From Planctomycetota bacterium (lineage in GTDB: Bacteria > Planctomycetota > B143-G9): a DNA stretch of 64,000 nt. Location: contig JAXHMW010000001.1 of NCBI GenBank assembly GCA_034521065.1, positions 28,046 to 92,045 on the forward strand. The letters run 5' to 3'. This document shows positions 1,745 through 19,780 of the stretch, in pieces. Within the stretch, counting starts at the first letter, position 1, and the number at the start of each line of letters is the position of its first letter. The notes below the pieces were generated by a model. The model did no database searches, was not told the DNA's origin, and saw only the letters and a list, made by a program, of their open reading frames with translations. A program made the position numbers and the translations under genes.

Positions 1745-1895
1745 GGTTTCGTAGCAAAACGAGCGAGGCAAAGTCAGGCGAGAAAGACATGGTGTTTCGA
1801 CGGAAGTAATAGCCTCGGCTATACTTAAGGAAGAATCGTCTTGACGACGAAGCATGGCGAAGCCGTAGCCGTTTGCAGTTAAACCGTTTTTTCCG
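1745..1895 (+). repeat. Intergenic repeat element, copy 1 (family shared with 19605-19780 and 12578-12653)
   Basis: Shares a 5' block tttcgtagcaaaacgagcgaggcaaagtcaggcgag and a 3' block aagcatggcgaagccgtagccgtttgcagttaaaccgtttttt with the other copies. It lies in the recA 5' region. Confidence 0.55.
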
Positions 1896-1918
1896 AAGTG
1901 ACCATAAGTGAGCCGGTG

Positions 1919-2770
1919 CTATTTCGACGGTGTCGAACCAAACAGACTTTCGGTCGCCGGAGGTGATATCACATCGGAGCCCGCGGTTCGCCCTACGTTT
2001 ACTATCATAGAAGGCGAGAAAGGCGGCGCGATTTGCATCTGCGGCGCGTTCTCGCGACCATGCATGCGCTTTTCGTACTCTCTGCGGACGTGTTCGGGAG
2101 TGTTGCGTTCGGTACTGAGATGGCCGAACATCACCATTCTCGGCCCCGAGCCGGAGGCCACCAGACCCGTCACGAAGTCCGACGCCTTCTCGTTCTTCAG
2201 GTGATTCCAGGAGTTGGGGTTCGGATGCAGCCGAAGAAGACCGCTGTCGTGATTGGATTCGAGATACAACATGTCGCAGTCGGCGAGCCTCGGAGCAAGC
2301 CCCCTTGCATGTTTGAGGTCGGTCGCGAAACCTATCTTCACTCCCTCGCCTCCGATGACGAATCCGCGGTTGGGCGCCTTGGGCGTATGTTCCACCGGAA
2401 AGGATTCCACGCTGAGGTCGGAGACCTTGAAGGGAATGTCCTCGAACAGCTCTACATGGCAGTCCGAAAGGGCCTTTGCGCACTTCTCCGAGCGCGCGAT
2501 GCGGTCTGCGGTCTCAATGGAGAGGAACAAGGGTACCGCCATGGAGGACATGACCCGCAGGCTGTGGTAGTTGACGTGATCCCGGTGGGCGTGTGATATG
2601 ACCACGCCTCGTACGGGTCCGAAGTTTTCGCGGATGTAGTTCAGGGCATCGCGAAATCGCCGCTGAGAGGAGAATCCGGCATCGAATACTACGGCACCGC
2701 CCGGGCTGCCAACGACCGTACAGTTGCCGGAACTGGAGGAAATCAAAGTTGAGAATGCGAGTCCGCTCAT
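1919..2770 (-). CDS. MBL-fold metallo-hydrolase (beta-lactamase superfamily)
   Basis: HAHRDH (HxHxDH) metal-binding motif in a 283-aa intact ORF. Confidence 0.75.
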   Translation of the reverse strand: MSGLAFSTLISSSSGNCTVVGSPGGAVVFDAGFSSQRRFRDALNYIRENFGPVRGVVISHAHRDHVNYHSLRVMSSMAVPLFLSIETADRIARSEKCAKALSDCHVELFEDIPFKVSDLSVESFPVEHTPKAPNRGFVIGGEGVKIGFATDLKHARGLAPRLADCDMLYLESNHDSGLLRLHPNPNSWNHLKNEKASDFVTGLVASGSGPRMVMFGHLSTERNTPEHVRREYEKRMHGRENAPQMQIAPPFSPSMIVNVGRTAGSDVISPPATESLFGSTPSK

Positions 2771-2899
2771 TGTCAGAAAATGATATCTACCTTTAGCTGC
2801 GACCCCTTTCGTTTTTCCCTCAAATTCGCTCCCCCGCCGAGAAACGAAACAGGTGCCCCAACTGCGAGTATGATTTGTGTCACTAAATCCGGAGAGTTG

Positions 2900-4369
2900 A
2901 TGAAAACGACCTTCCCCGCCATTCTCCTTGTGCTGCTGTTCGCCCTGGCATGCTCCGCGTGCGCTGAAGCGCCCGAAGAGAAAGACTCGAAGCTCTCCGT
3001 CACTTCACTGTGCGTACTCATGGCGGACAACCTTGAGGAGTTCTGCGAGTCCGGCGGATTCGCGCTCATATCACCGGCGAACGACAATCTCTTCGTTGCG
3101 CGCTCGAAAGGCGCGCAGACCAAGCTTTTGCTGAACTCGAAGGACATCACACCGGACGGCTGCACCGGATTCATCTCCGCCGCCTTCGCCCCCGACAACA
3201 CGCTCGCTTTCGCATACTCGACCCACGAAGGCTGCTTCGTTTCCGTGAGAGAAAGACAACAGAAGTTCGGATCGTACCGTTCTGTCAGGGAGAACTCGCT
3301 GCTGTTCAGTCCGGACTCGAAGAGGCTCGCGTTCATAGCGGGTGTGCAACGCCCGCGCGAAGCCGTCGTGCTGGACGGAGAGAAGGGAGAGGGTTACACG
3401 GAGATATGCGAGTTCATCTTCTCGCGCGACTCGCGCAGGTTCGGCTTTATCGGGCGAAACGGCAACGAGTACGCGCTCGTTGTGAAAGGCAAGGTGAGCG
3501 ACCGCTACACGGCCTACCGTAACCTTCGCTTTTCCACCGCCCGGCGCGGATACGCGGTCATGGCCATGGACAAGGGCGAATGGTTCCCGCTGCTGGGTTC
3601 GCGCAGGGGCGCTGGTTGTTTCGGTGCTGCAAGCGAGTTCGTATTCGACTCTCGCGGTAAGCGCTGCGTTTTCGTTGCCGAGACCGAAGAGGGCAAGGTG
3701 CTGTTCGAAAACGGCAAGCCCACCAAGTGGACAGACGTACAGCGCCCGTTCTTCGGCCCACGAGACAAGCTGACCTTTGTGCAGACCAGAAAGGGCAGAC
3801 AGTTCCCCGTTGTGGACGGAGCGGCGCTCAAGAGCTACGACCGTGTGCGGTTGATGCTCTTCTCTCCGGACGGCAAGAGGTTTATCCACACCGCGTTCAT
3901 GGGGCAGATGGAAGTGATGATGGAGAACGGCTCGTTCGACGAGGAGTTCCATCACGTCATCGAACCTGTCTTTACGCCGGACGGCGGCCATCTCGCCTTC
4001 GCGGGCCAGTTCATGAAGGATGTGACTTTGGTGGTGGACAAGCTTAAACCTGCCATTTGCAAGGGCACCGACGCCTTTGCGGTCACGATTTCAGACGACG
4101 CGAAGCACAGCGCCCTCTTCGTGGTCAACGGCGAAAGGGTGAGCCTCGTTGTTGACGGGAAACAGCTTGCGGAGTACTATAAGTTCGACCCTTGGTGTTT
4201 CGGAGCCGGTTTCACCGCCTACCGGGCTGAACAGGCTGCGGCCTTTGCCCGTGGCGAAATTCCCGAAGCGGCGCAACGCATGTTCAGAATCAGCATCGAG
4301 GACGGTGGATTCAGGTATTTCGCGGTTCAGGACGGCAAGTTCGTTCGAGTGGAGGGCGAATTCAAATGA
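2900..4369 (+). CDS. Lipoprotein with TolB-like / beta-propeller 'SPDGKR(L)AF' repeats, function unknown
   Basis: Signal peptide MKTTFPAILLVLLFALACSAC with a lipobox-like Cys. Repeated FSPDGKRLAF, FSRDSRRFGF and FTPDGGHLAF motifs. A GGAGAG ribosome-binding site precedes the ATG at 2900. The ORF-finder start at 2780 is probably too far upstream. Confidence 0.6.
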   Translation: MKTTFPAILLVLLFALACSACAEAPEEKDSKLSVTSLCVLMADNLEEFCESGGFALISPANDNLFVARSKGAQTKLLLNSKDITPDGCTGFISAAFAPDNTLAFAYSTHEGCFVSVRERQQKFGSYRSVRENSLLFSPDSKRLAFIAGVQRPREAVVLDGEKGEGYTEICEFIFSRDSRRFGFIGRNGNEYALVVKGKVSDRYTAYRNLRFSTARRGYAVMAMDKGEWFPLLGSRRGAGCFGAASEFVFDSRGKRCVFVAETEEGKVLFENGKPTKWTDVQRPFFGPRDKLTFVQTRKGRQFPVVDGAALKSYDRVRLMLFSPDGKRFIHTAFMGQMEVMMENGSFDEEFHHVIEPVFTPDGGHLAFAGQFMKDVTLVVDKLKPAICKGTDAFAVTISDDAKHSALFVVNGERVSLVVDGKQLAEYYKFDPWCFGAGFTAYRAEQAAAFARGEIPEAAQRMFRISIEDGGFRYFAVQDGKFVRVEGEFK

Positions 4370-4863
4370 GTGACGGACCGTTGGTGTCGATTATCCTGGC
4401 GGTATCAGCGAACGGCGTAATCGGTCGGGAAGGCGGCCTTCCATGGTCTCTTCCGACAGACCTGCAACGATTCATGCAACTTACTCTCGGCTCGACTGTA
4501 ATCATGGGAAGGCTCACGGCGGAATCCATAAGGAATCCTCTTCGAGAGCGTACCAATATCGTGCTGACAAGCGGCCCGAAGCTCGGCAGGGGGTTCGAGA
4601 CCGCACATTCGCTCGACGAGGCACTTCGGATGTGCGAAAGCGGGAAAGAGGTCTTCGTCATCGGTGGCAGGCGGGTTTACGAGGAGGCCATGCCGCGGGC
4701 CGACAGGTTATATGTAACCCGCGTGATGGCACAGGTCGAAGGGGATGTCAGGTACATGCCGTCCGTGGACGGCAGTTGGCGAATAGTCAGGTCAGAAGGC
4801 CCGATTACGAGCAGCAAGGACGATCACCCGTACCTGTTCGAGATATACGAGCGAGTCAGATAG
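4366..4863 (+). CDS. folA: Dihydrofolate reductase
   Basis: Motifs ISIILAVSANGVIGREGGLPW, LTSG, VFVIGGRRVYEEAMP; 165 aa. The start overlaps the upstream stop (ATGA). Confidence 0.9.
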   Translation: MSDGPLVSIILAVSANGVIGREGGLPWSLPTDLQRFMQLTLGSTVIMGRLTAESIRNPLRERTNIVLTSGPKLGRGFETAHSLDEALRMCESGKEVFVIGGRRVYEEAMPRADRLYVTRVMAQVEGDVRYMPSVDGSWRIVRSEGPITSSKDDHPYLFEIYERVR

Positions 4864-5335
4864 TGCGATACCTGAGTTCCATGTAAGTCTTGAAGCCCAG
4901 AGAGTTCCAGAACGCCATTGACTGTTCGTTGCCGACCGCGGCCTTGAGTTCCACCCTCTTAATCTTCTTGAAGCGAAACCACTCGACAGCTGCGTTGAAG
5001 AGCCTGCGTCCGACTCCACGCCTTCTGTGACGTTCGGTCACCATCAGGTCAACTATGTAGCCGTAACGCCCCCTCGGCCGCATTGGCGGATTGTCCTTGA
5101 CCGCCGCGAGGCAGTAGCCTACCGGCGCGCCCGCGATGTCCGCGACGAACAACCTAACGCCCGCCTTGCGAATCATGTTGGAGAAAAACGCCCGCATCGC
5201 GCTCTTCCAGTTCGGAGAAAGCTCCCAAAGCGGGTCAATAGCGGCGTGAAGGTCCTGCAGTTCCTTGCAAAGCCGCACGAGCGCCGCGATGTCTTCTCGT
5301 TGTGCCTCTCTGACAAGGAGCGTTGCGCGCATCAT
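4856..5335 (-). CDS. GNAT family N-acetyltransferase
   Basis: RRRGVGRRLF acetyl-CoA binding motif (R/Q-x-x-G-x-G/A); 159 aa. Confidence 0.75.
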   Translation of the reverse strand: MMRATLLVREAQREDIAALVRLCKELQDLHAAIDPLWELSPNWKSAMRAFFSNMIRKAGVRLFVADIAGAPVGYCLAAVKDNPPMRPRGRYGYIVDLMVTERHRRRGVGRRLFNAAVEWFRFKKIKRVELKAAVGNEQSMAFWNSLGFKTYMELRYRTI

Positions 5336-7336
5336 TCACTCCTTCTGTTCTGCCTGTGAAGGCGGGGTTCTCAAAGTCCTCAGAAACAGGTATATCTTCA
5401 GGGCCTCTTGCTGTGAGAGGCCGAAGTCGTCCATATCGGTGTCAGGCTGGATGTCTCCCGCCCTTTTGAGCCACGAAACCATGAATTCCGGCGTGACCTT
5501 CACTCCGATGTTGGAAAGATCGGGTCCTGTGTAAGCGGCAATTCCCCTGCCGTACACCTTGTGGCAGCGCACGCAGAAGTTCTTCTGGAAAAGCTGTTCG
5601 CCTTCCCTCAGGGCCTCTCTTCCTTGTGGAATATCCTCCGTCAGCGCCACCGGCAGTTTACCTTTCAGCGTTGAAAGGTAAGCAGCGAGATCCGCTGTCT
5701 CGTGCGGTTGAAGCATGGGGTCGGGCATATCGCTGTGGTTGAGAACTTCGTACGGCGCGGACAGCCAATGCTCCAGCCAGCCCGTGCGAACCTTGTCGCC
5801 TGTGAGCGCGAGGTTGGGCCCCTGCAGGCGCGGGAACTTCTCCTTGCCCTCCTTGCGCGTAAGACCGGCCGGAACCGGAGCGACAGAATGACACTGGTAG
5901 CACTGCTTGTGAAAAAACAGTATCCGGCCCCTACTTTCGGCTTTGCGATAGGGCTCGCCGGAATCGAGAGCGCGAGATGGTTCGAAATCCCTCAACGACA
6001 TGAGAAATGCCACAATGGGTTCCGACTCGTCGCTTGCGAGCATAAAGTTCGGCATCGCTACCTCCCGCTCGACAATCTCTTCGAACGAGCGGACGTGAGA
6101 GAGGTAGTCCAGCAGAGTTTCGTGAGCTTCGACGCCATCCCTTCGCGGCATGTCTTTGAAAGGCAGGTCGAGAACCGGACGGGAAGCAAACCCCGCGAGC
6201 GACGGACCTATCTTGCGTTCCAGCGAGGAGCCGTCGGTGGTGTGGCATGCGAGACAGTAGTTGTCGTCGAACAGCTTGCGCCCTGCTACGGGGTCTCCAC
6301 CGGCTTTCATTCCCGCGTAAGGGTCGGACGAGCCTCCGGTGGAAGTGGTGAGATAAGCGACGAGTATTCGCTTTTGTTCCTCACCGAGGGAATAGACGGG
6401 CATCCGCGAAAAAGGAAGGATTTCGCGAGGGTCGGAAAACCACCAGTTGAGCCAGCTTCGGCGATAGCGGAAGCCTGCGCCGGTGAGTATGGGGCCTTCG
6501 TCGCCGCCCTCGGGAAACTGCGGGGTGACATGGCACCTGTCGCAGCCGAGTCTGTCGAACTCGTTCTGTCCCTCGGTCGCGTCACCGGGGCGGAGCAGTC
6601 CGTACGGGGGCGGCGTGCGAAACTCCTCGAGCGAGTCGAGATATGCTCCGAGGTCGTTCGCAGCTTCTTCGGAAAATCCGTAGTAGGGCATGGTGCGGGT
6701 GACGGTTACGAGGGGTTTCTCCTGTGTCAGCAGCGCGATGAGGTATTCGGCGCGCAGTTTCTGCACGAGCTTTATCAGGTCGATGCGCTCGGTGTGGCGG
6801 TAAAGCCGGGGAATGGAGTGACATTCTGCGCAGCCAAGTCGCCGCACAAGCGTCCTGCCGTAACCGGGGCCGGAAGAGGAAGCCTGTACGTACTCCTGCC
6901 TGTGACAGACCGTGCAGGAAGAACGGGCCCGCCAGAGCATGTCATTCAGGGCGGGCCGCAGTGCGCCTGTCACGCCGTGGGCCTGCTCATGGTCGAGAGA
7001 GCGTCCGTCGCCGCCGTGGCAGGACGTGCAGCCGTAGGCGAAGTACGGGTGTTGCCGGTGCGCATAGTTGGACGCAAGAACATCTTCGGGCAGGTGACAG
7101 GTGAGGCATCGGTCCACAATGCCATCCGAAGCGACGAATACCTGGCGCATCTGCGGTGAGGCGTCCGGGTTCAATTTGAAAAAGTGGCCGTGCCAGGAAG
7201 GCGATGATTCGAGTGCCAGCGTTACTGCCAGTGCGACAAGCAGCAGCACAGCGGCCACGGTCAAGGCGATAACCCATTGTGTCAGCGTCCGGCCGGTATC
7301 CTTCACATTCTTCCCTGGTCGAAATGAAGTCTGCAT
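5336..7336 (-). CDS. Multihaem c-type cytochrome (8 CxxCH motifs) with an N-terminal membrane anchor
   Basis: Eight haem-binding CxxCH motifs: CLTCH, CTSCH, CTVCH, CAECH, CDRCH, CLACH, CYQCH, CVRCH. N-terminal transmembrane helix WVIALTVAAVLLLVALAVTLAL. 666 aa, intact. Confidence 0.85.
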   Translation of the reverse strand: MQTSFRPGKNVKDTGRTLTQWVIALTVAAVLLLVALAVTLALESSPSWHGHFFKLNPDASPQMRQVFVASDGIVDRCLTCHLPEDVLASNYAHRQHPYFAYGCTSCHGGDGRSLDHEQAHGVTGALRPALNDMLWRARSSCTVCHRQEYVQASSSGPGYGRTLVRRLGCAECHSIPRLYRHTERIDLIKLVQKLRAEYLIALLTQEKPLVTVTRTMPYYGFSEEAANDLGAYLDSLEEFRTPPPYGLLRPGDATEGQNEFDRLGCDRCHVTPQFPEGGDEGPILTGAGFRYRRSWLNWWFSDPREILPFSRMPVYSLGEEQKRILVAYLTTSTGGSSDPYAGMKAGGDPVAGRKLFDDNYCLACHTTDGSSLERKIGPSLAGFASRPVLDLPFKDMPRRDGVEAHETLLDYLSHVRSFEEIVEREVAMPNFMLASDESEPIVAFLMSLRDFEPSRALDSGEPYRKAESRGRILFFHKQCYQCHSVAPVPAGLTRKEGKEKFPRLQGPNLALTGDKVRTGWLEHWLSAPYEVLNHSDMPDPMLQPHETADLAAYLSTLKGKLPVALTEDIPQGREALREGEQLFQKNFCVRCHKVYGRGIAAYTGPDLSNIGVKVTPEFMVSWLKRAGDIQPDTDMDDFGLSQQEALKIYLFLRTLRTPPSQAEQKE

Positions 7337-7804: not shown

Positions 7805-8241
7805 ACGACCGATACCTAAACCATGAGCCGGGCAGGGAACGTAATATGGCAACTGATGACATTCTCACCAGGGCTGAGTGGACCGAGCGCGTTGTCGCCG
7901 TCGCGAACAACGTCATTGATGAGAACGAAGACCTATTTACGGAAAAAAAGGACAAGTCGTTCTTCGAGGACATGGTCCTCGACAGGGTCGAAGCCTACCT
8001 GAAAGGTTCGGCCGTACTTCACGCTGCACGCTATGAGTTCGTGAAGTACTGCGTTGGCGCAGAACATACCACAAGACCTGTGGAAGAAGAATGCAAGGGA
8101 CTGGAACGCTGTGCTGTACGGCGTTTCGTATCATTGCGCCTGTTTCGACGTTACAAAGATGGTTATGAAGATACTGTCGGACGAGGCTCCGAGACGCAAG
8201 AACCCCGTCTCACTGGACGAATGACGGAAAGGCCCCGATGA
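7798..8241 (+). CDS. Hypothetical protein (probable true start ATG at 7846)
   Basis: Intact ORF with no recognisable motif. It ends four nucleotides after the start of the next gene. Confidence 0.4.
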   Translation: MLNDRYLNHEPGRERNMATDDILTRAEWTERVVAVANNVIDENEDLFTEKKDKSFFEDMVLDRVEAYLKGSAVLHAARYEFVKYCVGAEHTTRPVEEECKGLERCAVRRFVSLRLFRRYKDGYEDTVGRGSETQEPRLTGRMTERPR

Positions 8242-11200
8242 AGACAATCGATGAGTTGGCGATCGAAAAAACGCTGAACGGTGAAGCGGAAGCCTTCGCC
8301 GACATCGTCATGCGTCACCGAATGGCGGTTATGCGCCTTTGTCTTTTTGCCTGCGGCGAATACGAAACCGCGAGCCGCATGCTCCGTCGCACTTTCCTCG
8401 CCTTCGCAAACCACATGGTCTCGCATCGCAATCAGGGCGACGTACACAACCTGCTCATAAACCACGCCGCACAGGTCATAAGCAGTTGGGAGAAGCGCGG
8501 CTCAAGACGTGTCGGTAAAATAGAAAATCTGAGAAACAACCTCGAACAGGCCTTCTACTTCCCTTCAGAAGAGCTTGAAAGGCTCAAGAACACCTCGATG
8601 GCTGAGTTGCAGAAGAGCTTTGTCAACGTCGCGGTGGCACTGGGCAAGTATCCCGTGCACCAGAAGCTCGTCATGGGCCTGAAGGCTTTCGAGGGTCGCT
8701 CGTACAACAACATCGCCAAGCTTTCCGGCATTGATCCGAAAAAGATACAGACCATAGTCGAGGACTTCCGCAAGTCCATTCTCGGCGGTTATAAGACAGA
8801 TGACGATGAAGAAGCCGAACTGGAGCAGATGCTTGGGCTTTTCGTTGACAACGAGCTTGCTCCCATCAAGGCCGCGCGTTTGCAGGAAGAGCTTAAGCAA
8901 AATGACCGTTTGCGCAAGCGCATGTCGGAGTTCATCCAGCTTCGCGACAGGCTGACGAGCGCGTTTGCGTACTTCGCCCCTCCCGACGACATCGTCGAGC
9001 AGATTATCAAGGGGATGCCCGACCCCAAGCGACTGCTCTCCGTCCCCCGCTTCGGTGAGATTGCCACGGCAATGGGCTTCGTCGAGCAGGAGGCCATCGA
9101 GGCAGCCCTGAAGGAGCAAAGGAAGCTCAAGGCCCGGGGGCACGATGAGCTTCTGGGTTCCATACTCGTTGAACGGGGCAGCATGGACAAAAAGACCGTT
9201 CAGCGTGTTCTGGAGGTGCAGGGAGAACAGGGCAAGCCTGAAACCCTTGCGGACTGCGAAATAGTGGAGCAGGTGGGCAAGGGCGGCATGGGTGTCGTGT
9301 ATCGCGCTCATCAGCAGAGCATGGGCAGAGATGTCGCAGTCAAGGTGCTGTATCCCAAGCTGGCGAAGGACGAGAAGTTCGTCGAGAGCTTCCTCACAGA
9401 GGGCAAAGCGGTTGCGCACCTTGCACACCCGAACGTGGTCACGGGTATTGATGTCGGAGAGCACCAGGGCTTCATCTACCTGATAATGGAGTTCGTGGAC
9501 GGCCCGACCCTGCGCGAATGGCTCGGGGAGCACGAGGTGATGGACGAGTCCACCGCCCTCGACATGGCCATCCAGGTCTCCGCCGCTCTCGACTACGCTT
9601 ACAAGAACAACTTCATTCACCGCGACATTAAGCCCGACAACATCATGCTCGACCGCAACGGCGTGGCGAAGGTCTGCGACCTCGGTCTCGCCATTAGTGG
9701 CGAACAGGACCTCTTCGACGAGGACGGCGTTGTGGGCACCCCGCACTACCTTTCACCGGAACAGGCCCGGGGAGAGCGCAATCTTGATACTCGCTCGGAT
9801 ATCTATTCCTTCGGCGCAACCCTCTACCACGTCTTGACCGGCTCGACACCCTATTCCGGCGAGGATTCGCGCGAGATCATGGAAAAACATGCTTTCAGCG
9901 ATATACAGCCTCCGAGCGAGCGCAATCCGGATATCTCAGAGGCGTTCGAGTCCATCATCATGAAGATGATGGCCCGTGACCGTGACCTGCGCTATCCCAC
10001 CCCCGGCGATTTGCAGCGCGACCTCGAACTGCTCAAGGCAGGCAAGCGCCCCGTGGCCTATCAGGAGAAGCTGATACTTGAAGGCAAGCTCGATCCCAAG
10101 ATGCTTTTCCATGCAGACCGCACTCCGCAGCTGGTAATCGGCATCGTGGCTTTCCTCGTAATAACCCTGACAGGCATGTACTTCCTGTTCCAGGAATCCA
10201 TCATGCCGCAACAAGAGACCACTTCCTCGTACACTCCGCCTCCCACTCCCACTCCGACGGTACTCAGAAGCGGCGAGTTCTTCGTGCCGTCAATCTCGCC
10301 CGAGCAGGCGAAGGCCGATTACGAGAAACTCGAACAGATGGCAGAGGCCTCAGAAGACCCCTATCAGCTCGCCATAGCATGCGGCACGTTCATTGAGAAG
10401 TATCCGGGAACCAAGTTCATTCAGAAGGTCCTGGAGTTACGCATAGAGGCGTTCAACGCTCACAACAAGCTGGTAGAGGCAGAAATCGAGAAACGCTTCA
10501 AGAAGGCCAAAGAATTGGTCACGCATGAAGAGTATGTCGCAGCACTGAATCACATGTACGGCCTGCCGGAACACATGCGAGCCTCTCCTGCATTCAATAA
10601 GGTAAAGGACAAGATAGACGAGATAAACATAGCCATCGAGGACGTTGTTTTCGAGGAAGTTGACGTTTCCCTCGAGCTTGCAGGTCAGGAAGAATTCACA
10701 GAGGCGACGGACAAACTGAAAGAGCTTATCAACAAGGTTCCACCCGAATACGTACAGCAGATCAGCAACACACTCGTCCGCATCGAGAAGGAAAAGTACT
10801 TCTATGTCATCAGCCTCGGCAAGAACGCGCTGACGAAGATTCTTTCGTATTTCATCGAGGGCGAGTTCGACCAAGCCGACAAGCTCGTGAAAAAGCTGAC
10901 TACCGACCCCGCTTTCGCCGAATTCGCGCCGATGATTGAACAGAGCAAGAATTTCTTCTCCTCGATTCGCTCTGTGATAGAACACGCGATGAAAAGAGCG
11001 AAGGAACTGGAGGGCGGTACGGTAATCCTTCGCCTCGATAACGGTTCAGAGGTTCAGTCCCGCATTCTGAAGGTGAATGACGATAGCACGCTGGATGTCA
11101 TATTTATGGCCGCGGGAGAGAAAAAGACCCTTTCCATTTCCGACCTGTCCTCTTATTGCATCGCGGATCTTGCAAGAAGTTCAATAAGTAACCTGCCTGC

Positions 11201-12569
11201 CGACAAGAAGGGAGAGCAGTACCTGTCGCTTGCAGTTTACGAGTTCCTGACAGGCCTCTTCGAGCTGGCGGACAAGGACATAGAACATGCCCGAAAGTTC
11301 AAAGCCGATCCCACCATTTACGGCATTCTTAAGAACAATTTCGGTGATGTGGTGAAGGAGCGATTCGCGTTGAAGACACTGCAGCGCCTGCGCACCGCCC
11401 GCAAGAACGAGGACTGGGAAGCCGTGGAGAGACTCGCCAAGGAGCTTTTGGGCAAGTTCTCTGCCACAAATGCCGTTTTGCCATATCTTGATACCATAAG
11501 GCTCGCAAGGTCGCAAGCCTCCCTCAATTTGACCGGAATCAAGCGGTTTTTCAACGCTCCCGTTTCCATGGACGCCAGGGGGCTGACGCAGTTCACCTAT
11601 GACCTTTCCAACAAGCACCAGATGAAGGATTTCGGTTACATGCCCGAAAAGTGGTCACTCGAAAACGGCAAGATTGTGCAAAGCGAGGACTTCGGCCTCG
11701 GCTACGGTCTGCATCATCCTGCCTTCTTCAAGGACCGATGCGAAGTGGAGTTCACCTACTCCAACGAAAAGTCCAACTCGCTTTTCGTGTACATGTGCGG
11801 GGTGTGGATCGGCCTCAACGCCCATAACTCCACCGCAGACGCTCTGAACGAGCTGCCGCGTGACAAGACCTACAAGGCGTTTTACGGCAACGACATCGAG
11901 TTCGGAATGGTTGCAGGCGATACCTACCGCATGCGCTACGTGGTCCGTGACGGAAAGGTTTCCGTGTTCGCGAACGACAAGCTCGTTTTCGAGAAGCACG
12001 TTACTACGAAAGCCTCAGGCGTTGAGATCCGCGATCTCGGTTTCGCTCAGATCTCCGAACTCGTAATCCGTGGCAAGATTGACGAGCAGTGGCTCGCAAC
12101 AATTGCAGAACTGAACGCCAGGATAGAGGCGGGAGAACTTACCCGCGGCCTCACCCGCATAGCCTACGGAACGCTGAATTTCTCGCGCAGACTCGGAGAC
12201 GAGGTAGTAAGCGAAGTTAACGATCATTTCGCGGTCGGGCCTTCCAAGCGTCTGCGCAAGCCGACTTGGTCCGCGAAGTACAAGGGATTCCTCATGGTTC
12301 CCGAACGCGGCGAGTACAAGCTTTATATCCGAACTACCGCCCGGACCTCTGTTCGTGTGAACGGAAAACGCGTTCACGACAACACGAGCACAGGCGGCGT
12401 GCCGGACAGCTTCCTCACCATCACCTTGCAGCTCGAAGCAGGGCTTAACGAGTTCGAGTTCTCCGTCGCCAACGACGACATTCCGGATCAGACCATCTGG
12501 CTCGGTTTCGGCTTTGAGACCGACTCCAAGGGCTCGCTCCCGCCAATCATGCTCTACACCGAACCTTAG
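8238..12569 (+). CDS. Giant multidomain signalling protein: N-terminal ECF-type sigma factor domain (sigma2 + sigma4 HTH), a T2SE_N-like helical domain (GspE N-terminal-like), a Ser/Thr protein kinase, one transmembrane helix, and a large extracytoplasmic region ending in a PA14-like domain
   Basis: The N-terminus LAIEKTLNGEAEAFADIVMRHRMAVMRLC...VHNLLINHAAQVI matches the ECF sigma2 pattern. HQKLVMGLKAFEGRSYNNIAKLSGIDPKKIQTIVEDFRKSI matches the sigma4 helix-turn-helix. Kinase motifs are GKGGMGVVYRA, VAVK, HRDIKPDNIML, DLGLA and GTPHYLSPEQ. The transmembrane helix is LVIGIVAFLVITLTGMYFLF. The C-terminal GFLMVPERGEYKLYIRTTARTSVRVNGKRVHDN...LQLEAGLNEFEFSV is PA14-like. The ORF is 1443 aa with no frameshift. 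Confidence 0.8.
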   Translation: MKTIDELAIEKTLNGEAEAFADIVMRHRMAVMRLCLFACGEYETASRMLRRTFLAFANHMVSHRNQGDVHNLLINHAAQVISSWEKRGSRRVGKIENLRNNLEQAFYFPSEELERLKNTSMAELQKSFVNVAVALGKYPVHQKLVMGLKAFEGRSYNNIAKLSGIDPKKIQTIVEDFRKSILGGYKTDDDEEAELEQMLGLFVDNELAPIKAARLQEELKQNDRLRKRMSEFIQLRDRLTSAFAYFAPPDDIVEQIIKGMPDPKRLLSVPRFGEIATAMGFVEQEAIEAALKEQRKLKARGHDELLGSILVERGSMDKKTVQRVLEVQGEQGKPETLADCEIVEQVGKGGMGVVYRAHQQSMGRDVAVKVLYPKLAKDEKFVESFLTEGKAVAHLAHPNVVTGIDVGEHQGFIYLIMEFVDGPTLREWLGEHEVMDESTALDMAIQVSAALDYAYKNNFIHRDIKPDNIMLDRNGVAKVCDLGLAISGEQDLFDEDGVVGTPHYLSPEQARGERNLDTRSDIYSFGATLYHVLTGSTPYSGEDSREIMEKHAFSDIQPPSERNPDISEAFESIIMKMMARDRDLRYPTPGDLQRDLELLKAGKRPVAYQEKLILEGKLDPKMLFHADRTPQLVIGIVAFLVITLTGMYFLFQESIMPQQETTSSYTPPPTPTPTVLRSGEFFVPSISPEQAKADYEKLEQMAEASEDPYQLAIACGTFIEKYPGTKFIQKVLELRIEAFNAHNKLVEAEIEKRFKKAKELVTHEEYVAALNHMYGLPEHMRASPAFNKVKDKIDEINIAIEDVVFEEVDVSLELAGQEEFTEATDKLKELINKVPPEYVQQISNTLVRIEKEKYFYVISLGKNALTKILSYFIEGEFDQADKLVKKLTTDPAFAEFAPMIEQSKNFFSSIRSVIEHAMKRAKELEGGTVILRLDNGSEVQSRILKVNDDSTLDVIFMAAGEKKTLSISDLSSYCIADLARSSISNLPADKKGEQYLSLAVYEFLTGLFELADKDIEHARKFKADPTIYGILKNNFGDVVKERFALKTLQRLRTARKNEDWEAVERLAKELLGKFSATNAVLPYLDTIRLARSQASLNLTGIKRFFNAPVSMDARGLTQFTYDLSNKHQMKDFGYMPEKWSLENGKIVQSEDFGLGYGLHHPAFFKDRCEVEFTYSNEKSNSLFVYMCGVWIGLNAHNSTADALNELPRDKTYKAFYGNDIEFGMVAGDTYRMRYVVRDGKVSVFANDKLVFEKHVTTKASGVEIRDLGFAQISELVIRGKIDEQWLATIAELNARIEAGELTRGLTRIAYGTLNFSRRLGDEVVSEVNDHFAVGPSKRLRKPTWSAKYKGFLMVPERGEYKLYIRTTARTSVRVNGKRVHDNTSTGGVPDSFLTITLQLEAGLNEFEFSVANDDIPDQTIWLGFGFETDSKGSLPPIMLYTEP

Positions 12570-12577
12570 GGGCGGGT

Positions 12578-12653
12578 TGCATAATACAGTCTTACTGCAA
12601 ACGGCTGCGGCTTTACCTCGCTCGTTTTCGTACGAAATTATTTTTTCGAGATA
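12578..12653 (-). repeat. Intergenic repeat element, copy 3 (compact, inverted orientation), flanked by a 16-bp direct duplication ccttaggggcgggttg (12562-12577 and 12655-12670)
   Basis: Its reverse complement reads ctcgaaaaaataatttcgtacgaaaacgagcgaggtaaagccgcagccgtttgcagtaagactgtattatg. The flanking 16-mer is duplicated exactly and includes the stop codon of the 1443-aa gene. Confidence 0.55.
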
Positions 12654-12795
12654 CCCTTAGGGGCGGGTTGAATGCGGTTCGCGGCGGGTTCTCAAAACTC
12701 AAGAAATTCTGAACGGGGTTCTCCCTTCTCCGAACGGCCTGCGCGGTTCCCTTTTGCGTGGTACAATATCTTAAAAATCATCAGGGAGGATAACT

Positions 12796-15374: not shown

Positions 15375-15868
15375 TTTACCTGCACGTTCTGGACGCGCAT
15401 ACGGTGTTGGGGTGCAGGTTTGAAGTCAGGGTTCGCGGGTCTGTGGCCGAACTCCATTTGAGAGTTGTCCACCACTGCTGCTGTGCCGAAGTGAGCACTC
15501 ACCTCGGCCGTGAGCGTCGCCGCGTCTTTGGCGGCCACTGTCGCGGTAAAAGTGCATGTCTGCCCGGCGAGCAGGGAGAAGTAAGGCTCGGGGGCTTCGA
15601 GTACGGTCAGGTCGCCGAATGTTATGAGAGTAAGAGACGCATCGTTGAGGTCGGCCGTGGTGTGAACCGTTATTGTCACATCCTGCACGTCTCCGGCCCG
15701 GTTCGATTTCGTCATCTCGATTGTGAAGGGGCTGTATTTCTTGGCGGAGCGCTCTTGTGCCGCGCCCTGCTCGGCCCTGCCGTGAGGGGTAAAGCCGATT
15801 GCTAACAGCGCCGCCGCCGCCAAGAGTATCGTGTATATCAAGCGCACAAATATGTCCTTTCTCGTCAT
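15371..15868 (-). CDS. Small secreted protein, likely co-transcribed with the downstream metalloprotease (4-nt overlap)
   Basis: Signal peptide MTRKDIFVRLIYTILLAAAALLAIG, then ~135 aa rich in Thr/Ala/Val in a beta-strand-like pattern. The ORF-finder start at 15958 is probably too long. Confidence 0.5.
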   Translation of the reverse strand: MTRKDIFVRLIYTILLAAAALLAIGFTPHGRAEQGAAQERSAKKYSPFTIEMTKSNRAGDVQDVTITVHTTADLNDASLTLITFGDLTVLEAPEPYFSLLAGQTCTFTATVAAKDAATLTAEVSAHFGTAAVVDNSQMEFGHRPANPDFKPAPQHRMRVQNVQVK

Positions 15869-16003
15869 TATACGGTACCGGATTATACATCCTTGAGGGC
15901 ACAAGGCGCAATTCATATTCGATTTTATCAATGAACTCCGAGTTGTCCTTCGCCACATAATAGACGTGCGCGCGGGATGTTCGTTGCAGAAGTGGCTTGC
16001 TAC

Positions 16004-16032
16004 TTGCCCGTGCCCCGAAGTGGCGGTATAAT
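16004..16032 (+). promoter_or_regulatory. Putative sigma70-type promoter for the flavodoxin-rubredoxin gene (-35 TTGCCC, 17-nt spacer, -10 TATAAT)
   Basis: TTGCCC at 16004-16009 and consensus TATAAT at 16027-16032, ~30 nt upstream of the ATG at 16062. Confidence 0.45.
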
Positions 16033-16061
16033 TTCATCCCACTCACAAGGGGCGAAGAAAT

Positions 16062-16928
16062 ATGGAAACATGCCGAATTATGGTAATTTACGATTCCGAC
16101 AAGGGTGCCACACGCACCGTGGCGGAACACGTCGCTAAGGGCGCGGCCAAGATTCGTCACATCAACGTTGAGATGCGTTTCTGCGAGGATGTCGAACTCA
16201 AAGAGATGCTGAAGGCCGACGCGTTCGCGTTCGGAACTCCCAACCACTTGGGCACGATGTCTGCTCGGATGAAGATGTTTTTCCGAAAACTGCAACCGCT
16301 GTGGGAACAGGGTTCCCTCCGTGGCAAACCGGCCTCGGTGTTCACCGCTTCCGGCAAGTTCCATGGCGGAGCCGAGACCTCGATGCTGTCGCTTATGTTC
16401 CCTGTTTTCGCGCACGGCATGCTGCTGGTCGGTCTGCCCACCTTTCCGAGGAGTTACGTGCTGGACGGGTGTTTCCTCGGTGTGAAGGCGTTCGTGGACC
16501 GTTCAAAGGACGACGGCCCGGATGAACCATCTCTCAACGCCGCTCGCGCACTGGGCGAGAGGCTCGCGCGCACGGTCCTCGCGCTCAAGGCCGGACGCAT
16601 GTGTGTCAAGGAGCAAATCGTGGACGAGAAATCGGTTAAACCGACTGTCCCGCCGCTCGATACGGACGACCAGAAGGAACTGGACCGCCTTATGGCAGAC
16701 GGCGATGTGGATGCCTGGCAGTGCAAGAACTGCGGTTACGTCCACAACGGGGATGTACCGCCAGAGATTTGCCCTGTATGCAATCTCGAACAGGCCTCCT
16801 TCACTGCCTACGACGTGGACGCCTGGGAATGCAGGGGCTGCGGTTTCGTGGTTTATTCGCAACGGCCCTCCGAGCCTTGTCCGGTCTGCGGCGAGGATTC
16901 GAAGGCGTTCAATCCTTACAAGGGCTGA
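16062..16928 (+). CDS. WrbA/flavodoxin-like FMN protein fused to two C-terminal rubredoxin-type [Fe(Cys)4] domains
   Basis: Flavodoxin-like N-terminus RIMVIYDSDKGATRTVAEHVAKGA...FGTPNHLGTMSARMKMFF. Two rubredoxin knuckles: WQCKNCGY...CPVC and WECRGCGF...CPVCG. Confidence 0.75.
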   Translation: METCRIMVIYDSDKGATRTVAEHVAKGAAKIRHINVEMRFCEDVELKEMLKADAFAFGTPNHLGTMSARMKMFFRKLQPLWEQGSLRGKPASVFTASGKFHGGAETSMLSLMFPVFAHGMLLVGLPTFPRSYVLDGCFLGVKAFVDRSKDDGPDEPSLNAARALGERLARTVLALKAGRMCVKEQIVDEKSVKPTVPPLDTDDQKELDRLMADGDVDAWQCKNCGYVHNGDVPPEICPVCNLEQASFTAYDVDAWECRGCGFVVYSQRPSEPCPVCGEDSKAFNPYKG

Positions 16929-16931
16929 TGA

Positions 16932-18197
16932 ATGGAACTTCAGGAAGAACTGAGCGATTTTGAGCGACAACTCGCACGGCTCGCGGTTAAGAACAAATTC
17001 GCCTCGGAGCAGGATATCAACCGCTGCGTGGCGATGTTCACTATCCGCCGCGAGGACGACGAGGAGTTGTCTCTCAGTCGCTTCATGGTGGATGAAGGGA
17101 TAGTTGACGAAAAGCAGGCGCGAGCATTGAAGCTGGCCGCCGAAAGGCACGTAAAGGATGCACGTAACGAACAGCACCGTATCGGTGGCTACCAGATTAT
17201 CGGCAAGCTCGGAGAAGGCGGGCTGGGCGTGGTTTATCGCTGTCTCCAGCTCTCGATGGGCCGCGAGGTCGCGCTCAAACTCCTTCACCCGCGGTGGAAT
17301 TTCGACGAGGAGTTCAAGCGCCGATTCCTGCTCGAAGCTCGGCTGCTCGGAAAGCTCAGCCACGAGAACCTCGTACAGGTTTACGACGTCGGCAAGGACA
17401 AGGGGCGATTCTATTTCTCCATGGAACTCGTGCAGGGCAGGTCCATAGAGGAAATTATTGACGAGGAAGGCCCCTTCAGCTCCGACCTCGCCATTGACAT
17501 CGTATATCAGGTCGCAAAGGCCATCGAGTACCTGTGGCAGTACAAGATCGTCCACCGCGACATTAAGCCCGGCAACGTCATGGTGGACGCGAAAGGCAGG
17601 GCCAAGCTCATGGACTTCGGTTTCGTCAAGCCGCGAATCGAGACCATAGAGTCCGAACCGGGTATGGTCCTCGGAACTCCGGACTATATCTCACCCGAAC
17701 AGGCCCAGGGCAAAACTGAAATTGACATCCGAAGCGACTTCTACTCGCTCGGGGCTTCGCTGTACCATATGCTGACCGGCTCGCCCCCGTTCTCGGGTTC
17801 GGGCTCCTCCGTTATGCGACAGCACCTTGTCAAGGGCATTCCGGACCCCTCCAAGGTGAACCCGGACGTGCCGGAGGAACTTTGCGCCCTCGTAAAAAAG
17901 CTCACCGAAAAAGAACCCGCAGACCGACTCCAGGCTCCCGAAGAACTGCTCAACGAGATTTCTCTCATACGAGCCCGGCGTAAGCTGGAGGTCGAAAAGC
18001 TGCCCAGGGGCGGTTCCACGATTGTGCGGGCGCTCAAGACATCACAGAAAAAGGACAAGGATCAGACGGAGACCATCGGCAAGCTTCAGACCGAGGTCAA
18101 GCGTCTGCGGTCGCTCATGTTCATGATTCTCATAGGCGGAGCGATTGCACTGGTCGTGCTCGCCGTACTCGTCGCAATTATGCTGCTGAAAAACTGA
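16932..18197 (+). CDS. Ser/Thr protein kinase with an N-terminal T2SE_N-like helical domain and a C-terminal transmembrane anchor
   Basis: GEGGLGVVYRC, VALK, HRDIKPGNVMV, DFGF, GTPDYISPEQ. C-terminal helix LMFMILIGGAIALVVLAVLVAIMLL. Confidence 0.88.
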   Translation: MELQEELSDFERQLARLAVKNKFASEQDINRCVAMFTIRREDDEELSLSRFMVDEGIVDEKQARALKLAAERHVKDARNEQHRIGGYQIIGKLGEGGLGVVYRCLQLSMGREVALKLLHPRWNFDEEFKRRFLLEARLLGKLSHENLVQVYDVGKDKGRFYFSMELVQGRSIEEIIDEEGPFSSDLAIDIVYQVAKAIEYLWQYKIVHRDIKPGNVMVDAKGRAKLMDFGFVKPRIETIESEPGMVLGTPDYISPEQAQGKTEIDIRSDFYSLGASLYHMLTGSPPFSGSGSSVMRQHLVKGIPDPSKVNPDVPEELCALVKKLTEKEPADRLQAPEELLNEISLIRARRKLEVEKLPRGGSTIVRALKTSQKKDKDQTETIGKLQTEVKRLRSLMFMILIGGAIALVVLAVLVAIMLLKN

Positions 18198-18204
18198 GGA
18201 TTCT

Positions 18205-19593
18205 ATGCAGGACAAAATGGAACTCGAACAACTCAAAGCTTACTATGAAGAACACGGTCAGGGCCACGTTTTCGACCACATCGGCGAACTGGCCGTACCA
18301 GCCCGCTCAGAGTTTCTGAAGCAACTGCGCTCGATAGACCTCGACAAGGTGGACTCGCTCGTCGAGAAGTACCGTACCCGCAAGGAGGAAACCGACCACG
18401 AACTCCGCCCCGCCGAGACTGTAGGCGCGCCAACTAACGACCAGGAGCGTGCCGAGAGGCGCAAGGCGCGCAACCGCGGAGAAGAACTTCTGCGGGCAGG
18501 TAAGGTCGCCGCTTTCCTCGTGGCCGGAGGACAGGGCACCCGCCTCGGGCTGCCCGGCCCCAAGGGAACTTTCCCCATTTATCCCATCACCGGCAAGAGC
18601 CTCTTCGAGGTCTTCGCTCAGAAACTGCTGAACCTGAGAGCTCGATTCGGCAAGCCCGTGCCCCTTTACGTCATGACGAGCCCCGCGAACGACGAGGAGA
18701 CCCGCGCATACTTCATGGCCTTCAATTACTTCGGTCTCGATAAGAAGACGGTGAAATTCATCATGCAGGGCACTCTCCCTTCGGTTGACCTCTGGGGCAA
18801 GCTTGCCCGTGACCAGCCCGGGCACGTATTTGAAAGCCCCAACGGCCATGGCGGAGCGATTGAGGCCATGGCAAAGAACGGCATGGTTCGCGAGCTTCTG
18901 GATGCGGGTTACGAGGAGCTTTTCTACTTTCAGGTTGACAATGTGCTCGCCCGAATATGCGACCCCGTTTTCGTAGGCTTTCACAACATGCGCGAGGCCG
19001 ACCTCAGCACCAAGGTGGTCGAGAAGATTCGCCCGGAAGAGAAGGTCGGAGTGGTCGGTTATATTGACGGCAAGCCGGGCGTAATTGAGTACTCTGAACT
19101 CTCTCAGAAACAGCTTCACGACCGTCGCAAGGACGGGCGTTTGCGCTATAACGCAGGCAACACAGCCATTCACTGCTTCAGCCTTCGCTTCCTCGATAAC
19201 CTGATATCCGGTAACTCGGAGCTTCCCTACCACTTTGCCCTCAAGAAGATGAAGAACATCGATGGCGAAGAAGTGGAGGTAGTGAAGTTCGAGAAGTTCA
19301 TCTTCGACGCAATGAAATTAGCCGGTCGCGTAATGGTGTTCGAGGTTGACCGTGCGCAGGAGTTCTCTCCTCTGAAAAACGCTGTCGGGCCGGACTCGCC
19401 CAACACCGTGAAAGAGGACCTTCAGAACCTCTGGACCGGGTGGCTCGAGGCCGCAGGTGTTGACGTGTCGCGGACCGAAGACGGCGAGCCTCGCGGCTGC
19501 ATCGAGATAAGTCCCACCTTCGCAGACAGCGAACTGGAACTGGTTGACAAACTCCCCGAAGGCTGGGAGTTCTCCGACGGCGCAGTACTGTAG
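18205..19593 (+). CDS. UDP-sugar pyrophosphorylase of the eukaryotic UDPGP family (UAP1/UGP-like; UDP-N-acetylglucosamine or UTP-hexose-1-P uridylyltransferase)
   Basis: VAAFLVAGGQGTRLGLPGPKG nucleotide-binding loop and overall UDPGP architecture; 462 aa, intact. Confidence 0.75.
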   Translation: MQDKMELEQLKAYYEEHGQGHVFDHIGELAVPARSEFLKQLRSIDLDKVDSLVEKYRTRKEETDHELRPAETVGAPTNDQERAERRKARNRGEELLRAGKVAAFLVAGGQGTRLGLPGPKGTFPIYPITGKSLFEVFAQKLLNLRARFGKPVPLYVMTSPANDEETRAYFMAFNYFGLDKKTVKFIMQGTLPSVDLWGKLARDQPGHVFESPNGHGGAIEAMAKNGMVRELLDAGYEELFYFQVDNVLARICDPVFVGFHNMREADLSTKVVEKIRPEEKVGVVGYIDGKPGVIEYSELSQKQLHDRRKDGRLRYNAGNTAIHCFSLRFLDNLISGNSELPYHFALKKMKNIDGEEVEVVKFEKFIFDAMKLAGRVMVFEVDRAQEFSPLKNAVGPDSPNTVKEDLQNLWTGWLEAAGVDVSRTEDGEPRGCIEISPTFADSELELVDKLPEGWEFSDGAVL

Positions 19594-19604
19594 GGGTGCC
19601 TCGA

Positions 19605-19780
19605 AAAAACTGCTTTCGCACGAAAACGAGCGAGGTCAACTCAGGCGAGGCAGCCAAGTTAAATTATGTTGATGGTGGCTGGCGGCCGTTATCGCAGGTA
19701 TCCCTCGTTCTCTGACCGTTCAACGACAATCAGGTAAGCATGGCAAACCCGCGGACGTTTGCAGTAAAACTGTATTTAAG
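19605..19780 (+). repeat. Intergenic repeat element, copy 2 (longest; between the UDPGP gene and the RCC1 gene)
   Basis: cctcgaaaaaactgctttcgcacgaaaacgagcgaggtcaactcaggcgagg ... taagcatggcaaacccgcggacgtttgcagtaaaactgtattt. Confidence 0.55.

Follow-up and report, generated by a model that had tools for sequence, protein, structure and literature searches.

Three short intergenic repeats in a Planctomycetota contig are probably IS5-type MITEs, one of them a precise insertion upstream of recA

The window analysed here, i.e., the whole 64-kb stretch of Planctomycetota DNA, contains three copies of an intergenic repeat, two on the forward strand (c1 and c2) and one on the reverse strand (c3; Table 1). 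The first copy stops approximately 100 nt short of the recA start codon, on its 5' side, c2 is located between a UDP-glucose pyrophosphorylase-like gene and an RCC1-repeat gene, and c3 lies at the end of a gene encoding a 1443-aa kinase (8238-12569). All three lie between called ORFs, and their sizes (86-195 bp) are below transposase-coding length. Their orientation with respect to the flanking genes is mixed (antisense for c1, sense for c2, and antisense for c3), and their GC content is 46.5-52%, compared with 56% in the window.

Table 1. Positions of the repeat copies, their flanking repeats, and related elements within the window.
Feature	Position	Strand	Description
c1	1729-1903	+	175 bp; 5' block 1729-1782, core 1783-1849, 3' block 1850-1903
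c1 termini			left GGTACCTCGAA...; right end, reverse complement, GGTCACTTCGGAA...
c1 target-site duplication, left	1724-1728		ATAAG (recA orientation: CTTAT)
c1 target-site duplication, right	1904-1908		ATAAG; lies 10 nt beyond the stop codon that ends metallo-beta-lactamase-fold gene 1919-2770 (-)
c3	12570-12655	-	compact copy; homology to c1 and c2 gives 86 bp, or 12580-12654 (75 bp) if the entire 16-mer counts as target DNA
16-bp direct repeat CCTTAGGGGCGGGTTG, copy 1	12564-12579		exact; holds the kinase stop codon
16-bp direct repeat CCTTAGGGGCGGGTTG, copy 2	12655-12670		exact
c2 flanking repeat, left	19589-19593		TGTAG; its TAG is the stop codon of gene 18205-19593
c2	19594-19788	+	195 bp; 5' block 19594-19649, core 19650-19735, 3' block 19736-19788
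c2 flanking repeat, right	19789-19793		AGTAG; 4/5 match to the left copy
Tandem repeat	23205-23384	-	two copies of a ~100-nt unit
Coding-less derivative	24592-24921	+	330 bp; IS5-type inverted repeats GGTCACCCTGAACAAT, GGTCACCTCGAACAAT; adjoins a tRNA gene
Solo left end of the IS5-family element at 51906	49538-49604	+	87% identical to 51906-51972
Internally deleted IS5-family element	51906-52463	+	558 bp; inverted repeats GGCCACCTCGAAAAAT, GGCCACCTCGAACAAT; N- and C-terminal transposase fragments

The copies share a 5' block of approximately 55 nt and a 3' block of approximately 53 nt, which are pairwise 70-80% identical (31-36 of 43-46 columns in the alignments) and in which a 13-mer and a 10-mer are invariant. 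Within the window, AAAACGAGCGAGG occurs exactly three times (1757, 19624, and, on the reverse strand, 12616), and CGTTTGCAGT(A/T)A is found at 1870, 19756, and 12592 (reverse strand). Profile searches of the 64-kb window with both blocks yielded E values of 1e-15 to 1e-19 at c1, c2, and c3 and no fourth locus, the next matches having E > 1. Exact strings and profiles thus bear out the initial annotation, which had proposed three intergenic loci with common ends, although the limits it assigned (1745-1895, 19605-19780, and 12578-12653) proved too narrow and have been moved outwards. Between the blocks (TCAGGCGAG to AAGCATGGC), there is a core of 67 nt in c1, 86 nt in c2, and 0 nt in c3, in agreement with the unrelated cores of 0, ~60, and ~90 nt described previously. 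Homology between the c1 and c2 cores was rejected because their global and local alignments are no better than those of shuffled sequences (p ~0.7). However unrelated to that of c1, the c2 core holds approximately 62 nt of the unit that is tandemly repeated at 23.2 kb, in the opposite orientation and with an 82% match; the cores are therefore mosaic and built from other repeated DNA.

The c1 copy is a precise insertion with a 5-bp flanking duplication, since a close relative carries the same site empty. This relative is represented by an ENA metagenome contig (L029); across the N-terminal 268 aa, its RecA shares 95% identity with that of the window. In recA orientation, the empty site of L029 reads ...gctgaCTTATatcttcgtacaaagaggttaaaat..., whereas the filled site of the window reads ...gctcaCTTAT[175 bp]CTTATatcttcgtacaaagaggttaaaat...; L029 has a single CTTAT, where the window has one on each side of the 175-bp insert. 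When positions 1729-1908 are removed from the window, the two sequences are collinear, with 81% identity over 154 nt, and it is the empty site that fixes the limits of c1. In a more distant relative (RecA 80% identity), the 21 kb surrounding recA contain no copies.

Short repeats also pair up at the homologous boundaries of the remaining copies. The flanking 5-mers are copy-specific yet matched inside each copy (ATAAG in c1, CTAAG in c3, and TGTAG/AGTAG in c2), and in element orientation the short flank is always xTA(A)G. At c3, the counterpart of the c1 duplication is CTTAG, which lies inside a longer 16-bp direct repeat and gives CTAAG/CTAAG in element orientation. An empty site for c2 was not obtained, as the sole homologue of the C-terminus of its upstream gene (69% identity) is non-syntenic downstream.

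The compact copy deserves separate attention. Its 5' and 3' blocks meet at an AAG microhomology, and it can be derived from a c1-like copy via a deletion between two such microhomologies. It contains the perfect palindrome TTTCGTACGAAA that had been pointed out in the initial annotation, and the exact 16-bp duplication reported there is likewise present, with the TAG stop codon of the kinase gene inside its first copy; nothing within three mismatches of this 16-mer occurs elsewhere in the 64-kb window. A repeat of this length does not agree with fixed-stagger DDE insertion. The earlier suggestion that the 16-bp duplication is the target-site signature of the family is not upheld: the repeat is an anomaly, atypical of a family whose regular duplication is 4-5 bp, and it is found at the copy whose right terminal repeat appears to be missing. 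In another relative (L007), in which the kinase and AhpC genes are syntenic, a 101-nt spacer lacks the element, but its sequence is too diverged there to be compared with the 16-mer site.

The element termini (GGnnnCTCGAAAAA) point to the IS5 family. The left and right ends of a single copy are only loosely matched to each other (p ~0.05 for c1 and c2; 0.4 for c3). However, when aligned from their outermost base, the termini of all three copies are similar to the inverted repeats of the internally deleted IS5-family element at 51906-52463, with p <= 0.003 in most pairs. The transposase fragments of that element match IS5-family transposases (tblastn E 1e-2 and 1e-4), and it is likely a relative of the parent of the present family. 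Moreover, AAAGTCAGCCGAAAAA of the solo left end at 49538-49604 matches AAAGTCAGGCGAGAAA in the c1 5' block, and the coding-less derivative at 24592-24921 represents another MITE-like element from this superfamily. Twenty large ORFs located between 25.7 and 59.9 kb of the window included no intact transposase.

Intact IS5-family elements are available for comparison from two plasmids, Antarctobacter pSMS3-2 (NZ_CP022542.1; 1325 bp, left repeat GGTTACCTCGAAAAATTG, flanks ACAT/ACAT) and Pseudosulfitobacter p3 (CP070877.2; 1293 bp, flanks TTAG/TTAG). When the left ends of all three copies and the right ends of c1 and c2 were compared with the four terminal repeats of these elements, the best-match p values ranged from <0.0005 to 0.002. 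An IS5-family terminal-repeat match is therefore seen in five of the six ends, the exception being the right end of c3, whose last 10 nt resemble no inverted repeat of the IS5 type. The end type is the same (GGTTACCTCGAAAAATTG, GGGCACCTC... in the plasmid elements vs. GGTACCTCGAATATTTGG, GGGTGCCTCGAAAAAAC in the copies), the short duplications of the plasmid elements (ACAT, TTAG) abut GG, and their targets include (C)TTAG, as at c3. In contrast to the plasmid elements, which are 1.3 kb long and encode a transposase of ~347 aa, the copies described here are 86-195 bp and non-coding, and no similarity extends beyond approximately 20 nt from each end. The canonical target duplication of the IS5 group is 4 bp, as in both intact relatives, whereas that of c1 is 5 bp and shrinks to 4 bp only when the shared G is counted as the first base of the left repeat.

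Taken together, the empty site at c1, the matched flanks, the IS5-like ends, the higher AT content than in the window, and the occurrence in both orientations make it highly probable that c1, c2, and c3 derive from an IS5-family insertion sequence and are themselves non-coding and non-autonomous (MITEs). The idea of a MITE-like element had already been put forward in the initial annotation, and the empty site in L029 together with the IS5-like ends now provides stronger evidence than was offered there. According to this model, each copy would retain both parental ends, consisting of imperfect terminal repeats of ~16-20 nt that start with GG(G)nnC(C/T)TCGAAAAA and are followed by ~35 nt of subterminal sequence, whereas the transposase gene would have been lost and the middle either deleted (c3) or replaced by unrelated short DNA (c1 and c2). 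Both ends would be bound by a DDE transposase whose gene lies at another genomic locus, and this enzyme would insert the element into a short T-A-rich target (ATAAG, CTAAG, GTAG) at or just past stop codons, and repair of the staggered cut would duplicate 4-5 bp of the target. We infer that the copies are mobilised in trans by an IS5-family transposase and that they arose via internal deletion; nonetheless, because the c1 and c2 cores diverge directly after the shared blocks, these two copies did not simply arise from one parent by independent deletions. The deleted IS5-family element and the coding-less 330-bp derivative in the window are consistent with a stepwise decay from IS to MITE, with the steps in this presumed order.

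Like IS5-derived prokaryotic MITEs, they are shorter than 200 bp, have no coding capacity, carry IS5-resembling terminal repeats and a short target duplication, are intergenic, have a GC content below that of the host DNA, and include length variants from internal deletion, features that agree with the definition in PMC10969869. They differ in that the two terminal repeats of a copy match each other poorly, one copy has a 16-bp flanking repeat, and the interiors of the long copies are unrelated, one of them holding a module of another local repeat. The conserved terminal modules and the variable middle are also reminiscent of BIMEs, BOX, and Correia elements, interspersed intergenic repeats with conserved terminal modules, optional or variable middles, and internally deleted length variants. 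However, BIMEs and BOX elements are not known to have target duplications or IS-type ends, and in Correia elements the duplicated target is TA and the repeats are 26 bp long.

Tn3-family replicative transposition typically generates 5-bp duplications, and the c1 duplication (ATAAG on both sides) has this length, although the feature is not family-specific. The copies might accordingly be Tn3-family-derived, TIME-like elements moved replicatively by a Tn3-family transposase, a reading that we consider very unlikely. TIMEs are likewise small and non-autonomous, with conserved ends, variable or mosaic cores, and duplications of 5 or 6 bp (PMC4133298, PMC13367494), and GG(G) opens the ends described here, which also include strings like CGGAAAAAAC or ACGAAAAC. 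These ends nevertheless have weak similarity to the Tn21 and Tn3 inverted repeats, for which the reference sequences were verified in plasmids as exact 38-mers: the best p values are 0.014-0.036, and across the six ends they range from 0.014 to 0.63, far weaker than against the IS5-family ends. Whereas TIMEs carry 38-bp repeats homologous to those of the Tn3 family, the copies do not have a GGGG...TAAG 38-bp architecture at both ends; IS5-family ends are their best match, and the Tn3/Tn21 similarity is marginal. In addition, the targets are not especially AT-rich (GTAG), and the window contains IS5-family debris of the same end type, whereas no Tn3-family gene was seen.

Structured small RNAs in UTRs had also been raised as a possibility in the initial annotation. 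On such a reading, the copies would be functional structured RNAs, either small RNAs or cis-regulatory UTR elements, with both blocks folding into a shared structure and the core acting as a variable insertion. Both blocks are indeed conserved, the copies adjoin gene ends, and local hairpins can be drawn (TTTCGTACGAAA, CCTCG...CGAGG, and TGCAGTAAGACTGTA). However, no Rfam match was found at the loci, either at gathering thresholds over the whole window or at E <= 5 over positions 1-24000. The folding and covariation analysis proposed earlier offered no support either: the folding energies are no different from those of shuffled sequences (z-scores of -0.1 to -1.7), and double-sided changes were found in 0/20 consensus pairs, with an unfavourable covariation term, in a comparison that has low power with three sequences. 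The orientation relative to the flanking genes is inconsistent, no promoter-like or terminator-like site common to the copies was found, and the orthologous spacers lack the element, as seen for the recA spacer of L029 and the kinase-AhpC spacer of L007. We consider a role as structured RNA very unlikely.

It is highly unlikely that the copies are REP/REPIN-like or IS200/IS605-derived palindromic elements, which would be moved in single-stranded form by a Y1 (HUH) transposase to a position beside a fixed short target and would generate no true duplication. Subterminal hairpins are present approximately 18 nt inside the left end and approximately 15 nt inside the right one, and the constant xTA(A)G flank might be taken for such a target. 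Nonetheless, these hairpins have little strength and c1 does not conserve them, and the flanking 5-mers vary between copies and agree within each (A..A, C..C, GT..GT), which is predicted by duplication rather than by a fixed cleavage motif. Furthermore, the ends match the inverted repeats of DDE-type IS5 elements, and neither a RAYT nor a TnpA-Y1 gene was seen. The REP-like interpretation of the initial annotation thus fails on the absence of a dominant palindrome and the presence of target duplications. Integron attC sites were dropped as a candidate, given the mixed orientation, the lack of an array, and the target duplications.

Within the interpretation of the copies as IS5-type MITEs, the peculiarities of c3 and of the cores merit further consideration. 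The c3 copy appears to be without its right terminal repeat, and it may be regarded as a damaged copy in which this repeat was lost or replaced, accompanying the anomalous 16-bp repeat. Since the last ~10 nt of the right terminal repeat appear to be missing, a normal transpososome should not use c3. The missing right end and the perfect 16-bp duplication of putative target DNA would fit the capture of a damaged or linear copy of the element by host repair at a long-staggered break rather than strand transfer by a transposase. Relatedly, the unrelated cores and the presence of the 23.2-kb module inside c2 raise the idea that the two conserved ends may repeatedly pick up unrelated short DNA. That c3 records a non-canonical insertion route and that the ends of the family constitute a minimal DNA-capturing cassette is, as a joint proposal, speculative and rather unlikely; if the latter is true, the family would amount to a composite transposon in miniature that swaps its cargo.

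Scans of public collections gave no further members. The exact pattern TTTCGNNNNAAAACGAGCGAGG gave 6 matches in GTDB representative genomes, 20 in JGI metagenomes, and 0 in IMG/VR, none of them accompanied by the other block, and the 5 matches to the 3'-block pattern in IMG/VR consisted of the pattern only, with the other block absent. BLASTN of c1 and c2 against plasmids returned only chance matches of 20-27 nt. It should be noted that exact patterns miss diverged members and that the source genome is evidently absent from the scanned collections; as no members were found in these collections, the family is known from this genome only.

Although these elements leave the understanding of transposition unchanged and are of an ordinary kind, they come from a lineage without catalogued examples, and the copies themselves are unannotated and have no database relatives. 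In genome annotation, such repeats should be masked as mobile DNA rather than treated as riboswitch or small-RNA candidates. Both c2 and c3 are inserted exactly on stop codons, and, given also the position of c1 5' of recA, the copies may affect termination or read-through between adjacent genes. Finally, the comparison of the filled and empty sites provides a clean sequence-level demonstration for a MITE family that is, or was until recently, active in uncultured members of a Planctomycetota lineage.

The three intergenic loci that the initial annotation rightly singled out are a genuine repeat family, each copy (c1, c2 and c3) consisting of a conserved 5' block and 3' block around a variable core. 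Exactly three matches to the 13-mer AAAACGAGCGAGG are present in the window (1757, 19624 and, on the minus strand, 12616), and the 3'-block string CGTTTGCAGT(A/T)A is found at 1870, 19756 and 12592 (minus). Searched with profiles of the two blocks, the window yields these loci alone (E 1e-15 to 1e-19), the next matches having E > 1. Alignment of the three copies extends the shared sequence outward past the limits first proposed; block identity from copy to copy is 70-80%, and the GC content of the elements is 46.5-52%, compared with 56% in the window. The perfect palindrome described in the compact copy, c3, is indeed present as TTTCGTACGAAA. The cores are likewise as variable as had been claimed: measured between TCAGGCGAG and AAGCATGGC, they span 67 nt in c1 and 86 nt in c2 and are unrelated to each other (p about 0.7 against shuffles), and in c3 the blocks are joined directly, with AAG microhomology at the junction.

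Repeat copies and insertion sequence-related features (window coordinates, or length for elements of other replicons)
Feature	Position or length	Strand	Details
c1	1729-1903		limits refined from alignment; between metallo-beta-lactamase-fold gene 1919-2770 (minus) and recA 564-1628 (minus), antisense to both
c2	19594-19788		limits refined from alignment; between UDP-glucose pyrophosphorylase-like gene (plus) and RCC1-repeat gene (plus), sense
c3	12570-12655	minus	limits refined from alignment; between kinase gene (plus) and AhpC gene (plus), antisense
c1 target duplication	1724-1728 and 1904-1908	plus	ATAAG (CTTAT on the recA strand)
~100-nt unit	23205-23384		two tandem copies, on the far side of the RCC1-repeat gene from c2
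Internally deleted IS5-family element	51906-52463		558 bp; repeats GGCCACCTCGAAAAAT and GGCCACCTCGAACAAT
Solo left IS end	49538-49604		87% identical to the internally deleted element
Coding-less derivative	24592-24921		330 bp; directly beside long-arm tRNA gene 25003-25091 (minus)
Intact relative, Antarctobacter pSMS3-2	1325 bp		left repeat GGTTACCTCGAAAAATTG; flanks ACAT/ACAT
Intact relative, Pseudosulfitobacter (plasmid)	1293 bp		flanks TTAG/TTAG

That the copies are inserted DNA is clearest at c1. A RecA search led to a 1265-bp ENA metagenome contig (L029), whose RecA is 95% identical to that of the window over the N-terminal 268 residues. Upstream of recA this contig reads ...aaatagcactcgctgaCTTATatcttcgtacaaagaggttaaaat..., where the window, on the recA strand, reads ...aaatagcaccggctcaCTTAT[175 bp]CTTATatcttcgtacaaagaggttaaaat.... 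Once 1729-1908 are removed, the window is collinear with the contig across the insertion point (81% identity over 154 nt, both flanks aligning); therefore, c1 is a precise insertion bounded by duplicated CTTAT. At the homologous boundaries, c3 has CTAAG on the left and right, and c2 has TGTAG and AGTAG. Because these flanking repeats agree within a copy and differ between copies, they point to target duplication and not to a fixed terminal motif. The duplication length is ambiguous by one base, since the G that ends ATAAG may open the left repeat GGG; this would make it 4 bp long (ATAA, CTAA), the length seen in both intact IS5-family relatives. In a second relative (L007, AhpC 82% identical), the kinase C-terminus and AhpC are syntenic, and the 101-nt spacer between them contains no element. 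L029 matches the window exactly over the 29 nt adjoining the c1 site (1695-1723; recA-strand sequence CTTATATCTTCGTACAAAGAGGTTAAAAT), the surrounding spacer being only approximately 80% identical; this stretch may be a recA promoter or operator, and the c1 duplication leaves it intact.

The termini of the copies start with GG(G)nnC(C/T)TCGAAAAA, and the window also carries debris of IS5-family insertion sequences with the same type of end. The N- and C-terminal transposase fragments of the internally deleted element match annotated IS5-family transposases (tblastn, E 1e-2 and 1e-4), with a faint NCBIfam IS1182 match as well; no recognisable target duplication was found at this element, the solo end or the coding-less derivative. 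In end-anchored alignments with shuffling controls, both ends of c1 and c2 and the left end of c3 resemble the intact IS5-family repeats and the window remnant (p <0.0005 to 0.003), and the right end of c3 shows no resemblance to the repeats of the two intact plasmid elements (p 0.22-0.81). At a collinear position, AAAGTCAGGCGAGAAA of the c1 5' block also corresponds to AAAGTCAGCCGAAAAA in the solo IS end (p 0.005). A Tn3-family origin is improbable, the ends being only marginally similar to Tn3/Tn21 repeats (best p 0.014; each reference repeat verified as an exact 38-mer present in thousands of plasmids).

The right end of c3 coincides with the exact 16-bp duplication reported there, which we confirmed: CCTTAGGGGCGGGTTG lies at 12564-12579, where it includes the TAG stop of the 1443-aa Ser/Thr kinase gene, and at 12655-12670, and no further window sequence is within three mismatches of it. 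Its reading as a target-site signature does not hold for the family. Homology with c1 predicts a CTAAG duplication at c3, and CTAAG is found at the expected spot within the 16-mer; an additional 10 nt (GGGCGGGTTG, plus strand) fall where the right terminal repeat belongs, match the native flank on the opposite side exactly and show no resemblance to IS5-type repeats. Of two possible explanations, one is that a normal c3 insertion was afterwards changed by slippage or conversion, which is plausible because a third GGCGGGTT some 20 nt further on makes the native spacer itself repetitive. The other is that a 75-bp element without a right repeat is surrounded by a genuine, long target duplication of 16 bp. 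In the one relative carrying the locus, this stretch has diverged too far for comparison. Under either option, the repeat is not the normal signature of the family but an oddity of one damaged copy. In the spacer 3' of c3 (12662-12691), GGCGGGTT occurs twice in 30 nt, or three times counting the duplicated 16-mer, and this short-repeat nature of the native target region may bear on the origin of the duplication.

The interiors of c1 and c2 have been replaced or filled by other DNA. Part of the c2 core (19643-19704) shares ~62 nt, with an 82% match in opposite orientation, with the ~100-nt unit, which bears the GC-rich hairpins TGCCCGTGCGGCA and GCCGAGGCTCGGC; the 3.5-kb RCC1 gene thus has inverted copies of this module on either side. 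No other match was found for the c1 core. Simple deletion from a single parent therefore does not account for c1 and c2.

Several lines of evidence speak against the alternative that the copies are structured small RNAs. Rfam matches in the window are limited to two tRNAs; the three loci have none, even at E <= 5. The suggested folding of the copies gave energies no different from those of dinucleotide shuffles (z -0.1 to -1.7), and a consensus fold with the cores removed had an unfavourable covariation term and double-sided changes in none of 20 pairs, a test of low power with three sequences. No promoter-like or terminator-like site is common to the copies. The empty orthologous sites are an independent argument, as is the mixed orientation relative to genes, which makes an RNA acting in cis less likely.

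When GTDB representative genomes, JGI metagenomes and IMG/VR were scanned for the exact pattern, the only matches were chance ones that did not extend beyond it; as the window's own copies were absent, the source genome is not in those collections. BLASTN against plasmids revealed no relative, and a more distant relative carries no copy in the 21 kb surrounding its recA.

At two of the three insertion targets, the upstream gene's stop codon falls within the target; the third target is 10 nt past a stop codon. The window derives from a Planctomycetota metagenome-assembled genome, and the AhpC/Bcp protein encoded downstream of c3 shares 100% identity with NCBI 'MAG: thioredoxin-dependent thiol peroxidase [Planctomycetota bacterium]'. 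Two neighbouring genes have disrupted reading frames. A frameshift near 825-850 splits recA (506-1628, minus), the relative's RecA matching in frame -3 over residues 1-268 (95% identity) and in frame -1 over residues 263-368 (75%); this is either an assembly indel error or a pseudogene. The RCC1-repeat gene (19853-23200, plus) comprises 17-18 tandem repeats of 171 nt (57 aa) that carry the motif YGQIGNGKGGE and whose uneven spacing (164-174 nt, plus two double spacings) breaks the reading frame across several ORFs; the cause is either indels in the assembly or gene decay. Elsewhere, a 38-nt repeat (54960-54997 and 55613-55650, 92% identical) with the GC-rich hairpin GCCCCCGCCATTGCGCGGGGG at its end resembles a duplicated terminator.

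The evidence best supports mobilisation in trans, in which an IS5-family DDE transposase from another part of the genome would bind both element ends and insert the element into a short target containing T-A; 4-5 bp would be duplicated when the staggered cut is repaired. The insertion with its duplication is demonstrated, as are the kinship of the copies and the similarity of the ends; the transposase's identity and even its presence are inferred, since a search of 20 large ORFs of the window revealed no transposase. Prokaryotic MITEs are defined as intergenic elements of <500 bp with terminal repeats and flanking direct repeats that are AT-richer than the host (PMC10969869), and the features described here fit this definition. 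The MITE-like nature initially suggested is thus backed by the empty c1 site, the copy-specific flanking repeats and the IS5-type ends. Derivation as MITEs from the IS5 family is the best explanation of the copies and very probably correct, and they are a fresh addition to an already known class of element.
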